A stretch of 64,000 bases of DNA from an uncultured Acidobacteriia bacterium (GCA_903828455.1 CAIKMJ010000036.1:35973-99972), one strand, 5' to 3'; positions 23,989 through 26,109 are shown, numbered from the stretch's first letter. Numbers and translations are program-made. The notes: generated by a model from the letters alone, not told the origin.

Positions 23989-26109
23989 ATGCACAAACCG
24001 ATTAAGTACGCTGAAAAAGCGGTCACCATGGCGGCCAAGGGAGCCTGGAGCGTTTTCAACGCATTCAACTCCATCAAGCCGAATCCTTCGTTCACGCCGA
24101 AATGGGCGGACAAGCCGCTGCTCAAGTCGTGGGAAAAGCAGAAGCCGCAGCTTGGCTGGCCGCGCCAGACCGATTCGCTGTGCCCCAAGTGCGTGCCGGA
24201 AATCCGCAACAAGATTGTGAATGGCGAGCTGCCGGTGGAGATCCTCCGCAATGAGAAGGCGGGCGAGATCAAAGCGCAGATCATTGAGCGCGACGGCAAG
24301 ATCTTCATGGTGAAGGATTGCGAAATCCACGGCCACTTTGAAGACATTATGGCGATCGACACGAGCTTCCTCGAGCACGTGGAACGCGTTTTCCCGGGCC
24401 GCGACATGCGGGCGCACAACGACAAAGATCTGCACAACCACGGTTCGAGCACGGTGACGCACGGACGCGGTTCGGTGCTGACGATCGATCTGACCAACCG
24501 CTGCAACATGATGTGCGATCCGTGCTTCATGGACGCCAATCAGGTTGGTTTCGTGCACGAACTGACGTTCGAAGAAATCAAAACGATGCTGGACAACGCC
24601 ATCACGATTAAGCCGCGGCGGCAGATGTCGGTCCAGTTTTCGGGCGGCGAGCCGACGCTTTCGCCCCACTTCCTCGATGCGGTGCGCTACGCCCGCAAGG
24701 TCGGCTACAACAGCGTGCAGGCGGCGACGAACGGAATTGAATTTGCCAAGCGGCCGGACTTCTGCCGGCAGGCGGCCGAAGCGGGCCTGCGGTATGCGTA
24801 CCTGCAGTTCGACGGCATCGGCAATGCGGCCAATTCGCATCGCGCGGTGGGCAACCTGTTTGACGTGAAGATCCGGGCGATTGAGAACCTGCACTCGAAC
24901 GGCGTCGACATTGTGCCGGTGATCACGCTGATCAATGGCGTGAACAACGAGCAGGTCGGCCAGGTGATCCGGTTCGCGCTGGACAATCCGAAGAAGATCT
25001 CGTTCCTTTCCTTCCAGCCGGTTTCCTTCACGGGACGCGACGAAGAAGTGACGCCGGAGCGGCGCGCGGCGCAGCGTTATACGCTGTCGCACCTGGCGCA
25101 CGACGTGAAGAATCAGGTCGGCATGGGCGAACCGGCCCGTGACTGGTTCCCGATCTCCTTCATGAGCACGTTTTCGGACTGGGCGGATCTGATCCACGGA
25201 CCCGATGCGCAGTGGGGACAGCTGAGCTGCGGCTGCCACCCGAACTGCGGCGTGGGCATGGCGGTGATGATCGACAAGGAAACGAAGGAATTCCGCCCGG
25301 TGACGCAGTTCCTGAATGCCGAACAGCTGGCGAAGGACATCGCATCGATCAACGACGCGGCGCGCGGCAAGAAGCTTTCGATCCTCGGCGTTTCGCTGGC
25401 GCTGCTCCGCAACTACAATCCGTTCGAAGCGCCCAGCACGTTCAAGCTGACCGATATGCTGATGAAGTTCGACAAGTGCTTCGGCGCCACGGGCCGCAAC
25501 TACGGCAAGGTGACTCCGGACCGCACCTTCGAAGACATTGAGAAGCGCCGGCAGGACCGCTGGAACTTCCTCTTCATCGCGGGCATGTGGTTCCAGGATC
25601 TGTTCAACTACGACTTCCGCCGCACCGAACAGTGCATCATCCCGTATGCGACGCAGGAAGGCGAGATCAGCTTCTGCGCTTACAACACGGGCGTGGGCTG
25701 GCGCAATATCGTCGAGAAGATGCACATGACGGCCTCGCTCACCAAGTGGTATGAAGAGCGCGGACGCCATGAGATTTTCGCCGGCAACAAGAAGGTGCCG
25801 CTCGCCACGGTTCAGCACTCGCTGATTCTGAGCCAGGAGGCGGTGGACAAGGGTATTCAGCACGATCTCGATTCGCAGGGCATTGCCAAGACGGCCCGCG
25901 AAGAGAAGATCCGCGCGCGCAACGCCGAGATGGCGAAGAAGGCGGCTGAAGACGCCCGGATGGCGAAGCTGTATCGCGAAGTGGTGCTGAAGGAAAAGCC
26001 GGTCGAAGGGGGCTTTGTGCCGCTCGATTCGCTGGGCGGCATCCAGCCGGCCGCGCCTGCCGCGAAGCCGGCGGACTCGAAGGAAGAAGTCGGCAGCTTC
26101 GGCGACTAA
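23989..26109 (+). CDS. large radical SAM protein, Tes/GDGT-MAS-like (candidate membrane-spanning lipid synthase)
   Basis: 706 aa. Cx3Cx2C cluster motif CNMMCDPC within TIDLTNRCNMMCDPCFMD, and SGGEPT. The N-terminal SLCPKC...IIERDGKIFMVKDCEIHGHFED module is followed by a long C-terminal half and a Lys/Glu/Ala tail. Confidence 0.6.
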   Translation: MHKPIKYAEKAVTMAAKGAWSVFNAFNSIKPNPSFTPKWADKPLLKSWEKQKPQLGWPRQTDSLCPKCVPEIRNKIVNGELPVEILRNEKAGEIKAQIIERDGKIFMVKDCEIHGHFEDIMAIDTSFLEHVERVFPGRDMRAHNDKDLHNHGSSTVTHGRGSVLTIDLTNRCNMMCDPCFMDANQVGFVHELTFEEIKTMLDNAITIKPRRQMSVQFSGGEPTLSPHFLDAVRYARKVGYNSVQAATNGIEFAKRPDFCRQAAEAGLRYAYLQFDGIGNAANSHRAVGNLFDVKIRAIENLHSNGVDIVPVITLINGVNNEQVGQVIRFALDNPKKISFLSFQPVSFTGRDEEVTPERRAAQRYTLSHLAHDVKNQVGMGEPARDWFPISFMSTFSDWADLIHGPDAQWGQLSCGCHPNCGVGMAVMIDKETKEFRPVTQFLNAEQLAKDIASINDAARGKKLSILGVSLALLRNYNPFEAPSTFKLTDMLMKFDKCFGATGRNYGKVTPDRTFEDIEKRRQDRWNFLFIAGMWFQDLFNYDFRRTEQCIIPYATQEGEISFCAYNTGVGWRNIVEKMHMTASLTKWYEERGRHEIFAGNKKVPLATVQHSLILSQEAVDKGIQHDLDSQGIAKTAREEKIRARNAEMAKKAAEDARMAKLYREVVLKEKPVEGGFVPLDSLGGIQPAAPAAKPADSKEEVGSFGD

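Follow-up and report, generated by a model that had tools for sequence, protein, structure and literature searches.

An open reading frame (ORF) on the plus strand of a 64,000-nt stretch of DNA (hereafter the window) encodes an intact, expressed-type member of a Terriglobia-wide sister clade of the archaeal tetraether lipid synthases (Tes, or GDGT-MAS), the 'long' class of ~700 amino acids. Of the catalytic apparatus of the archaeal enzyme, only the N-terminal [4Fe-4S] cluster is gone; the radical SAM cluster, the rubredoxin site, the Met-ligated C-terminal cluster, the 5'-deoxyadenosine (5'-dA) loop and the conserved Tyr are retained. By analogy with GDGT-MAS, tail-to-tail coupling of iso-branched lipid chains is its most likely function, at about even odds.

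The gene and its locus

The following features were mapped at the locus:

22621-23706, minus strand: queG, the divergent neighbour upstream of the window gene
23707..23988, plus strand: upstream intergenic region, the 282-nt gap to divergent queG (ORF map and sequence)
23989..26109, plus strand: coding sequence of the long-class Tes-like radical SAM protein (ORF map, Pfam, NCBIfam, PDB search and AlphaFold2 model)
26145..26185, plus strand: Rho-independent terminator, a GC-rich hairpin of 16 bp with a U-run on its 3' side (sequence and RNA fold)

The ORF at 23989..26109 (+) opens with an ATG and encodes a radical SAM protein of 706 amino acids. Because an in-frame stop lies 21 nt 5' of this ATG and the N-terminus MHKPIKYAEKA is common to the window protein and its homologues down to 60% identity, we consider the start to be correctly placed. 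The ORF contains no in-frame UGA (selenocysteine) codon and is the only one within the 64-kb window with a CxxxCxxC motif. It bears out the sequence-only reading of this DNA, which had described a stand-alone 706-aa radical SAM protein with a CNMMCDPC cluster: the motif is found as RCNMMCDPCF, with cysteines C172/C176/C179. An antisense ORF of 651 aa (23908-25863) overlaps the gene and was rejected as a high-GC shadow, on the grounds of the GC3 of 0.83 and the thousands of homologues of the plus-strand ORF.

The promoter and 5' UTR presumably lie within 23707..23988. A sigma-70 consensus scan of the region upstream of the gene gave no match, and an Rfam search of the same interval found no riboswitch, the best match (E 0.15) being noise. 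Downstream, the 96-nt RNA fold of the terminator has a stability of -48.9 kcal/mol (z -5.09, with 0 of 200 shuffles as stable); a simple terminator scan did not pick up the hairpin at 26145-26185. The gene is monocistronic and ends in a genuine terminator of its own, as had been read from the sequence.

Relation to archaeal Tes and its cofactor ligands

Tes (NF045702) was the best of 18,950 NCBIfam models for the window protein, with an E value of 3.1e-95 and positions 1-483 of the 486 in the model covered. The score of 319.6 bits is below the curated equivalog cutoff of 450; true Tes representatives score 450-593 bits. By sequence, the only full-length relative in the PDB was GDGT-MAS (7TOL, E 2.8e-60). 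When the AlphaFold2 model of the window protein (pLDDT 88.1, pTM 0.87) was compared by Foldseek with 7TOL/7TOM, E values of 6.9e-37 and 5.8e-35 and target-normalised TM scores of 0.85-0.86 were obtained over ~555 columns; the predicted structure matches the four-domain fold, lipid-pocket domain included, whereas matches to all other structures were confined to the radical SAM core. In a neighbour-joining distance tree (480 columns, 100 bootstraps, midpoint-rooted without an outgroup), the window clade together with P0134 was split from the MJ0619-containing group with 100% bootstrap. Tes/GDGT-MAS is thus the only whole-length relative of known function, and the window protein is not a canonical Tes. 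The earlier assignment as a Tes/GDGT-MAS-like radical SAM protein therefore stands; the HMM and phylogenetic comparison with MJ0619 proposed with it upheld Tes as the best family and placed the protein outside the verified group.

The second-best curated family was TrsS (NF045646), a radical SAM selenoprotein with no known function (PMC13188914), which aligned with residues 93-567 at 208.4 bits against a cutoff of 490. SPASM/twitch maturases (NirJ, AhbC/D, PqqE, MftC, anSME and others) were rejected, their NCBIfam matches covering residues ~153-368 only, with 26-75 bits against cutoffs of 265-650. A MoaA-like assignment was likewise discarded, since its matches are limited to the radical SAM core and the C-terminal domain matches GDGT-MAS only.

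The coding sequence divides into six segments:

23989..24159, plus strand: clade-specific N-terminal extension, residues 1-57, absent from true Tes (alignment A1)
24160..24351, plus strand: rubredoxin-like Cys3His zinc-ribbon, residues 58-121, with C65, C68, C111 and H114 (PF23545)
24352..24474, plus strand: linker in place of the N-terminal auxiliary [4Fe-4S] domain, residues 122-162 (alignment A1)
24475..25068, plus strand: radical SAM core, residues 163-360, with C172/C176/C179 and the 5'-dA loop Q343/S346/R350 (PF04055)
25069..25728, plus strand: C-terminal auxiliary-cluster and lipid-pocket domain, residues 361-580, with C420, C549, C563, M533 and Y553
25729..26106, plus strand: clade-specific C-terminal extension, residues 581-706, absent from true Tes (alignment A1)

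The order of rubredoxin-like ribbon, radical SAM core and C-terminal [4Fe-4S]/lipid-pocket domain is that of Tes/GDGT-MAS (MJ0619, 7TOL/7TOM; MA_1486; NF045702), and the two share the CX3CX2C motif, the Q/S/R of the 5'-dA loop, the three Cys and the Met of the C-terminal cluster, and the Tyr. Identity to GDGT-MAS is 33% over 458 aligned residues. For these comparisons, the HMMER alignment was used to rebuild residues 16-484 of MJ0619, with a numbering that agreed with the residues named in the structure paper.

The N-terminal module that had been described as characteristic of the archaeal family, SLCPKC...IIERDGKIFMVKDCEIHGHFED, is indeed present, SLCPKC at residues 63-68 and IIERDGKIFMVKDCEIHGHFED at 98-119, and is recognised by PF23545 (Zn_ribbon_HMPTM, the MJ0619 N-terminal module) with an E value of 2.4e-12. 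C65, C68, C111 and H114 are invariant in alignments A1 and A2, and C111/H114 align with C33/H36 of MJ0619, matching its mononuclear Fe site (C9-X2-C12...C33-X2-H36). The ribbon spacing is longer than in Tes, with a clade-specific helical insert of ~25 aa (residues 69-93). Membership of the radical SAM superfamily is indicated by PF04055 (Radical_SAM; E 9.7e-20, 71.8 bits against a cutoff of 29.5), by the invariant CX3CX2C cysteines and by superposition of the core on MoaA, viperin and HydE. C172/C176/C179 correspond to C98/C102/C105 of MJ0619 and Q343/S346/R350 to Q268/S271/R275, while C420, C549, C563, M533 and Y553 correspond to C338, C455, C470, M439 and Y459 (the cysteine ligands of [Fe4S4]C in MJ0619 being taken from the alignment, as the paper text names Met439 only); each of these shows 100% conservation across 240 orthologues. 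In a set of 1,000 archaeal Tes, M439 and Y459 do not vary either (PMC9433317).

GDGT-MAS carries a further cluster, [Fe4S4]N, bound by CX3CX2C plus His, whereas the window protein has a conserved, His-rich and Cys-free loop, LHNHGSSTVTHGRG, in place of the Tes motif CPxxCGxCxxH. MJ0619 C73/C77/C80 align with a gap, S153 and T155, and no Cys occurs between residues 112 and 171. Over the 240 orthologues, H149 and H151 of this loop are 100% and H158 is 95% conserved; the model has low pLDDT (51-61) at residues ~141-160. The cysteines of [Fe4S4]N are likewise missing from P0245, a Tes-scoring protein of a CPR lineage. The auxiliary-cluster check suggested with the original assignment thus gave a divided answer, C420/C549/C563 and M533 being kept and the three [Fe4S4]N cysteines lost.

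Three further features set the window protein apart from Tes: the ribbon insert, an N-terminal extension of 57 aa that includes an amphipathic helix, and a C-terminal extension of ~125 aa. The N-terminal extension has a mean conservation of 0.79 over 240 orthologues, and its helix (residues 4-27) is predicted with pLDDT 87-97 and a hydrophobic moment of 0.46. No transmembrane segment was predicted in this extension, and the helix is probably an interfacial membrane anchor. The C-terminal extension consists of a folded segment, a long charged helix (residues 636-666) and a disordered Ala/Pro/Lys-rich tail, with conservation of 0.76 and then 0.67, and pLDDT <50 from residue 673.

Distribution, context and classes of acidobacterial homologues

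The best genome matches of the window gene are from Bryobacterales/Terriglobia (75-84% identity); the source is a lake-dwelling Bryobacterales (Terriglobia) acidobacterium, in line with the acidobacterial origin inferred earlier. This host is an aerobic-type bacterium with ester/ether iso-branched lipids, whereas the hosts of Tes have isoprenoid diethers. The gene is present in at least 596 GTDB species. Among the best 80 of these, all are labelled Acidobacteriota, mostly Terriglobia of SD1 and SD3 and including the cultured Acidipila rosea, save two Bordetella-labelled bins that look mislabelled; an Edaphobacter-assigned MAG also carries a long-class gene. Identity is 75-92% across two acidobacterial orders, and the median for the same genome pairs is 77% versus 57% for the neighbour queG, a pattern that points to strong purifying selection. 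In metatranscriptomes of soil, peat, permafrost and freshwater, contigs tile the coding sequence and leave its flanks uncovered; the long-class family is transcribed in the environment.

No lipid genes were found within +/-6 kb or across the whole 64-kb window, as had been stated beforehand. When 12 neighbours of the gene were searched by tblastn in 80 related loci, only queG recurred (18/80), and unbiased clustering of flanking ORFs from 80 loci gave no recurrent partner above 12/80. The Pfam-annotated contexts of three further loci contained nothing lipid-related; linkage to lipid genes was absent from ~85 long-class loci in all. Fe-S assembly genes lie nearby at one SD1 locus. The contexts of a true-Tes-type bacterial gene and of the sister lineage are equally bare, and genomic context was therefore treated as uninformative and not as negative evidence.

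The acidobacterial 'Tes homologues' comprise distinct classes with different cofactor sets. A close class (S. usitatus Acid_5929, 545 aa; K. versatilis; Bryobacteraceae proteins named 'tetraether lipid synthase Tes' by NCBI) shares with the window protein the superfamily, both Pfam domains, the phylum and the order, and is common in Bryobacteraceae; both have been put forward as candidate brGDGT synthases. The identity of this close class is 40-42% to MA_1486 (E ~1e-140) and only 31-33% to the window protein; with the Tes model it reaches 545-593 bits, and it has the [Fe4S4]N motif CPxxCGxCxxH and none of the extensions. Acid_5929 led to S. usitatus as a brGDGT producer (Chen 2022 preprint; Halamka 2023 Table S6). 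With top matches in Koribacter and Solibacter, the close class appears restricted to few acidobacterial lineages (PMC8941075). A different class again is represented by T. roseus WP_014786616, which lacks the C-terminal cluster cysteines; P0141 has no radical SAM motif.

The long class itself has been met before. S. usitatus Acid_2410 (714 aa, 30.1%, 4e-62) and the E. aggregans homologue (32%, 4e-61) resemble the window protein in length, similarity level and taxonomy, and on these grounds (length, score class and taxonomy, as distinct from their sequences) it is most likely their orthologue. Both were given as BLAST matches only, in papers silent on the missing cluster and the extensions (Halamka 2023 Table S6; Zeng 2022). 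Acidobacterial Tes homologues have already been proposed by Zeng 2022, Chen 2022 and Halamka 2023, in S. usitatus as 'one or both', including Acid_2410, and the candidate is an already published BLAST match and not a discovery of this work. Sahonero-Canavesi et al. found Tes homologues in 3/14 iso-diabolic acid-producing acidobacteria with a >=30% identity filter; this may be an under-count, because the filter sits at the identity of the long class to archaeal Tes. Among the matches listed, the largest long-class clusters have up to ~2,100 metagenomic members, versus ~120 for the close class.

A candidate reaction and its alternatives

If the protein acts as GDGT-MAS does, it would work on the cytoplasmic side of the membrane, where the amphipathic N-terminal helix may hold it, and its hydrophobic pockets would accept a hydrocarbon tail of one glycerolipid and a tail of a second. 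Two SAM molecules would be cleaved at the radical SAM cluster (C172/C176/C179), abstracting hydrogen in turn from the terminal carbons of both tails. The C-terminal [4Fe-4S] cluster (C420/C549/C563, its labile ligand being M533) would store the first substrate radical in the form of a C-S adduct until a Csp3-Csp3 bond joins the two tails. For an acidobacterium, iso-C15 chains, acyl or alkyl, would supply these tails, and the product would be the 13,16-dimethyl-octacosane membrane-spanning skeleton of iso-diabolic acid and brGDGTs. As there is no N-terminal auxiliary cluster, the radical SAM cluster would have to receive its electrons differently, for example through the rubredoxin site or directly.

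Several observations favour this reaction. Every residue that the structure paper ties to coupling chemistry is found in the window protein. GDGT-MAS binds ester-linked phosphatidic acid of E. coli, with non-specific head-group binding (PMC9433317), and iso-C15 tails end in an isopropyl group, as phytanyl does (PMC8941075). Iso-diabolic acid is described as a common lipid of Terriglobia SD1/SD3 lineages in PMC13159169, which cites Sinninghe Damste 2011 for it. E. aggregans makes iso-diabolic acid and brGDGT-Ia and its single Tes homologue is a weak one (32%, 4e-61; PMC8941075). The reaction has also been shown for Mss, known from T. maritima (Tmari_0825) and T. ethanolicus (WP_129545148.1); this radical SAM enzyme couples two fatty-acid tails at the omega or omega-1 carbon into diabolic-type diacids, and for it a Tes-like auxiliary-cluster mechanism has been postulated (PMC13159169, PMC13459092, PMC13274423). 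Mss occurs in anaerobes and is active only anaerobically. To its mention alongside the Tes family in the sequence-only reading it should be added that Mss is not BLAST-detectable as a Tes homologue and no mss homologues have been found in Acidobacteria (PMC13159169); another coupling enzyme is therefore needed there.

Against tail-to-tail coupling we count the sub-cutoff score, the 100%-bootstrap split, the loss of one of the four Tes metallocofactors, the closer class in the same order, the lack of lipid-gene linkage and the 3/14 incidence of Tes homologues in iso-diabolic acid producers. S. usitatus, moreover, has no detectable iso-diabolic acid (PMC10087280) despite a long-class gene, as inferred above. 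By similarity, the view of this gene as a prime brGDGT-synthase candidate is overstated: it is a reasonable one, from a divergent class without [Fe4S4]N, with a closer 545-aa class in its order.

In a rival reading the family and its radical chemistry on a hydrophobic chain are kept, the long class carries out another lipid modification (for instance macrocyclisation within one molecule, cross-linking of a different type of lipid or a redundant part under particular conditions), and the close class or an unrelated enzyme makes the brGDGT/iso-diabolic acid skeleton. The close class, above the Tes cutoff and under the Tes name, is common in Bryobacteraceae and Ca. Solibacter; the brGDGTs of S. 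usitatus were discovered through it (Chen 2022 preprint); the superfamily has diversified in Acidobacteria (the T. roseus class, P0141); the window clade is split from verified Tes; and GDGT-MAS itself also makes macrocyclic archaeol (PMC9433317). We nevertheless find this reading possible and rather unlikely, since the close class apparently occurs in few lineages (PMC8941075) and iso-diabolic acid is near-universal in SD1/SD3, E. aggregans makes iso-diabolic acid and brGDGT-Ia with the weak-type homologue only (PMC8941075), and the long class retains the full coupling apparatus in the larger clusters among the matches listed. That the Tes scaffold now serves a non-lipid substrate (cofactor, peptide or other small molecule) is improbable. 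The score under the Tes cutoff, TrsS as second-best family, the bare context, the Fe-S assembly genes by one SD1 locus and the pterin methylation formerly assigned to the family would fit such a substrate; the GDGT-MAS fold, on the other hand, is matched over all domains including the C-terminal lipid pocket, TrsS falls far below its cutoff with no UGA in the window ORF, and the context of true-Tes-type bacterial genes is equally uninformative. The sole biochemically characterised family member is the lipid-acting GDGT-MAS, and the pterin assignment was not reproducible (PMC9433317).

An inactive relic or mis-called ORF is very improbable. One Fe-S cluster is lost and a long antisense ORF overlaps, but the remaining ligands are all 100% conserved, identity is 75-92% across two orders, constraint is stronger than on queG, transcripts of the family occur in situ and the structure is predicted with high confidence; conservation and GC3 refute both a pseudogene and the antisense ORF. 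The legacy annotation, 7,8-dihydro-6-hydroxymethylpterin dimethyltransferase (HMPTM) of methanopterin biosynthesis, is given by JGI to many orthologues and survives in the label of the Pfam domain, the name tracing to MJ0619. Terriglobia are not known as methanopterin makers, which also counts against it. Lloyd et al. could not corroborate the activity and showed that MJ0619 is GDGT-MAS, with a narrow hydrophobic tunnel that makes pterin binding unlikely (PMC9433317); on this basis the annotation was rejected as effectively refuted.

The literature of 2025-26 has yet to settle which enzymes make acidobacterial brGDGTs (PMC11868695, PMC12042123, PMC13459092), in agreement with the sequence-only reading. 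These lipids are the basis of widely used palaeotemperature and palaeo-pH proxies, and the acidobacterial enzyme that builds their skeleton is being sought; Mss accounts for anaerobes only (Thermotogales and Clostridia, for example) and is missing from Acidobacteria. Our analysis adds that the homologues form distinct classes, and that the long class, with its coupling apparatus minus one cluster, is highly conserved, widely transcribed and represented by the larger metagenomic clusters among the best matches; it may have been concealed by the identity cutoffs of published surveys. Tentatively, and with more doubt than confidence, we propose that this long cluster-depleted paralogue, and not the close Tes, could be the general acidobacterial membrane-spanning-lipid synthase, making the iso-diabolic acid/brGDGT skeleton across SD1 and SD3 and under-counted at the 30% cutoff, with loss of the surface-exposed [4Fe-4S]N and gain of the anchoring helix as adaptations to aerobic soil and lake life. 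The window organism itself is from a lake. With a marker gene for tail coupling, the brGDGT producers of soils, peats and lakes could be mapped from metagenomes.

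The gene and its locus

The 706-aa radical SAM protein described by the sequence-only reading is present, with its motifs, and the gene stands alone with a terminator of its own, as had been claimed:

23989..26109, + strand: Tes-like radical SAM ORF, ATG start, 706 aa
26145-26185, 3' of the gene: terminator hairpin, 16-bp, GC-rich, followed by a U-run (z -5.1)

The start is secure, since an in-frame stop lies 21 nt 5' of the ATG and homologues with identities as low as 60% share the N-terminal peptide MHKPIKYAEKA. No other ORF in the window contains CxxxCxxC. The protein's RCNMMCDPCF motif supplies C172/C176/C179, SLCPKC occupies residues 63-68 and IIERDGKIFMVKDCEIHGHFED residues 98-119; Pfam detected PF23545 (MJ0619 N-terminal zinc ribbon, E 2.4e-12) and PF04055 (Radical_SAM, E 9.7e-20). 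A 651-aa antisense ORF (23908-25863, -), almost coextensive with the gene, was rejected as a high-GC shadow.

The gene is monocistronic, separated by 282 nt from the divergent queG; a consensus terminator scan missed the 26145-26185 hairpin. Its 5' neighbours are argC, argB, a GNAT and queG, and those on the 3' side encode an HbpS-like protein, an MBL hydrolase and a Rieske/cytochrome b-c pair. As the sequence-only reading had noted, lipid genes are lacking alongside; none was found in the rest of the 64-kb window, whose content is ordinary housekeeping, and genomic context was uninformative for function in every class examined. The acidobacterial host proposed earlier was correct, as the closest genome matches are Bryobacterales and other Terriglobia (75-84% identity).

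Several features of the surrounding sequence were also recorded. Across 24000-28000, which takes in the gene and its downstream neighbours, GC falls to 0.60, compared with 0.65 upstream and 0.63 downstream. The interval 27845-30146 encodes the Rieske protein and then a 551-aa cytochrome b that carries c-type cytochrome domains at its C-terminus, a fused bc-type complex. Within 56502-60000, a tRNA gene (56502-56572) precedes the lowest-GC stretch of the window (0.58-0.59 versus 0.62-0.66), which holds a Fic/DOC-domain ORF (58095-59204) and may be a small element integrated at the tRNA.

Position within the Tes superfamily

Membership of the superfamily to which archaeal tetraether synthase (Tes/GDGT-MAS, MJ0619) belongs was borne out. 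Of the 18,950 NCBIfam models, the Tes equivalog NF045702 matched the window protein best (E 3.1e-95, end-to-end alignment), although the score, 319.6 bits, falls under the curated cutoff of 450. TrsS came second (208 bits versus a cutoff of 490), and the remaining radical SAM families matched the core only. GDGT-MAS is the sole full-length PDB relative (7TOL, E 2.8e-60). An AlphaFold2 model built from an 83-sequence alignment was confident (pLDDT 88.1, pTM 0.87) and matched GDGT-MAS alone over the whole protein (E 7e-37, target-normalised TM 0.85-0.86), while MoaA, viperin, HydE and similar structures superposed on its core only.

An exhaustive HMMER search over 1.84 billion cluster representatives gave 603 matches under 1e-30, and scoring the full-length ones against the Tes model separated two groups. 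True Tes representatives, 28-36% identical to the query, reached 450-593 bits; the group to which the query belongs (P0121, P0136, P0141, P0143, P0153, P0180) reached 170-320 bits, with P0134 intermediate (414 bits). The split had 100% bootstrap support, with MJ0619 on the true-Tes side, in a midpoint-rooted neighbour-joining tree (a distance method, 480 trimmed columns, without outgroup). The family assignment stood but the gene is a divergent paralogue, outside Tes proper on two membership tests, and not the prime candidate that had been proposed.

P0136, P0153, P0180 and P0141 represent further acidobacterial and related classes. The C-terminal cluster cysteines are missing from the Terriglobus roseus type (P0136, WP_014786616.1; 624 aa, 40% identity to the query), and P0141 has no radical SAM CX3CX2C motif at all; the two probably differ in function or are inactive. 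Four 510-aa proteins from Candidatus Parcubacteria/Minisyncoccales (P0245, P0277-P0279) score 584 bits, above the Tes cutoff, and group with MJ0619 at 100% bootstrap, indicating that archaeal-type Tes is present in CPR genomes. Yet they lack the [Fe4S4]N cysteines, the N-terminal cluster having apparently been lost there independently.

Cofactor sites and clade-specific regions

Sites were mapped on MJ0619 residues 16-484, rebuilt from the HMMER alignment, after correction for a 20-residue tag (chain residues 118/122/125 are the native C98/C102/C105 named in the paper).

Sites of MJ0619 and their equivalents in the window protein
Rubredoxin site: C33/H36 to C111/H114, C9/C12 to C65/C68; kept
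Radical SAM cluster: C98/C102/C105 to C172/C176/C179; kept
5'-dA loop: Q268/S271/R275 to Q343/S346/R350; kept
C-terminal cluster: C338/C455/C470 to C420/C549/C563; kept
Labile ligand: M439 to M533; kept
Tyr: Y459 to Y553; kept
N-terminal cluster: C73/C77/C80 to gap/S153/T155; lost

Of the two auxiliary clusters, only the C-terminal one retains its cysteines, and residues 112-171 contain none. In a multiple alignment (A1), most true Tes carry CPxxCGxCxxH at the N-terminal cluster position and the query's clade carries LHNHGSSTVTHGRG. Across 240 SD1 and SD3 orthologues all retained ligands are 100% conserved, and so are H149 and H151 in the loop that takes the place of the cluster motif; this loop is the sole internal low-confidence region of the model. 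Clade-specific additions comprise a 57-aa N-terminal extension, in which helix 4-27 is amphipathic (hydrophobic moment 0.46) and no transmembrane segment was found, a ~25-aa insert within the rubredoxin ribbon, and a ~125-aa C-terminal extension that includes a charged helix (636-666) followed by a disordered tail.

Acidobacterial classes and proposed function

The hypothesis that an acidobacterial Tes homologue makes brGDGTs is already in print. Zeng et al. 2022 (PMC8941075) proposed this role for 456 bacterial homologues, with top matches in Koribacter (42%, 1e-149) and Solibacter (40%, 1e-139) and a single one in E. aggregans (32%, 4e-61). S. usitatus, chosen through its close homologue, was then found to produce brGDGTs (Chen et al. 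2022). It encodes Acid_5929 (545 aa, 40.2%, 1.4e-139) and Acid_2410 (714 aa, 30.1%, 4.2e-62), 'one or both' being proposed as the synthase (Halamka et al. 2023, PMC10087280, Table S6). From its 706 aa, ~1e-60 to archaeal Tes and Bryobacterales host, the window protein is inferred to belong to the long, Acid_2410 class. Sahonero-Canavesi et al. 2022 (PMC13159169) found no mss in Acidobacteria and, with thresholds of E <= 1e-50 and identity >= 30%, counted Tes homologues in only 3/14 iso-DA producers; since the long class lies at the 30% boundary, this count may be too low. The earlier statement that brGDGT enzymes are incompletely resolved agrees with 2025-26 papers and a review, according to which none of the bacterial Tes homologues is functionally confirmed.

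Members of the long class are present in at least 596 GTDB species. The best 80 carriers, cultured Acidipila rosea included, are all labelled Acidobacteriota, mostly Terriglobia, except two bins; an Edaphobacter-assigned MAG also carries the gene. The two exceptions ('uncultured Bordetella sp.', 'Bordetella parapertussis') hold this acidobacterial-type gene (78-79% identity) and are probably mislabelled or contaminated. A search with its representative P0188 showed that Bryobacteraceae and Ca. Solibacter commonly carry the close, 545-aa class. At 90% identity, the largest clusters among the best matches comprise up to ~2,100 metagenomic sequences for the long class and ~120 for the close class.

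We propose, at about even confidence and by analogy with GDGT-MAS, that the window protein is a peripheral-membrane radical SAM enzyme that takes an iso-branched C15 chain from each of two glycerolipids and couples the chains at their terminal carbons. Catalysis would consume two SAM molecules and proceed by way of a C-S adduct at the C-terminal cluster, steps established for GDGT-MAS, and would yield the iso-diabolic/brGDGT skeleton. In the GDGT-MAS crystal the pockets contained E. coli phosphatidic acid, and head-group binding is non-specific (PMC9433317), so the Tes scaffold can accept bacterial diacyl lipids. The missing N-terminal cluster implies a different electron-entry route; speculatively, its loss and the added amphipathic helix could be an adaptation to aerobic hosts.

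A less probable but serious reading is that the close class is the real brGDGT synthase, the long class applying the same chemistry to another lipid or being redundant; NCBI names only the 545-aa class 'tetraether lipid synthase Tes', the window's class being 'radical SAM protein'. A non-lipid substrate is unlikely, given the whole-protein match to GDGT-MAS. JGI names for long-class orthologues vary from 'uncharacterized radical SAM...' through the outdated '7,8-dihydro-6-hydroxymethylpterin dimethyltransferase' to, occasionally, 'tetraether lipid synthase'; that the pterin-methylase name is correct is the least credible reading of all. An inactive relic is scarcely more plausible: over the same genome pairs, median identity is 77% for the gene versus 57% for the neighbouring queG, a far stronger constraint. 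Metatranscriptome contigs from soil, peat, permafrost and freshwater (>=80% likeness; from relatives of the window organism, DNA carry-over being possible) tile the CDS and end where it ends, indicating that family members are transcribed in brGDGT-rich habitats.

The sequence-only reading is thus partly supported: superfamily, host phylum and question were right. The exact gene sequence occurs chiefly in lake-water and freshwater metagenomes (runs X1-X14; up to 98% of sampled words), which identifies the host as a lacustrine Bryobacterales and bears on in-lake brGDGT production.
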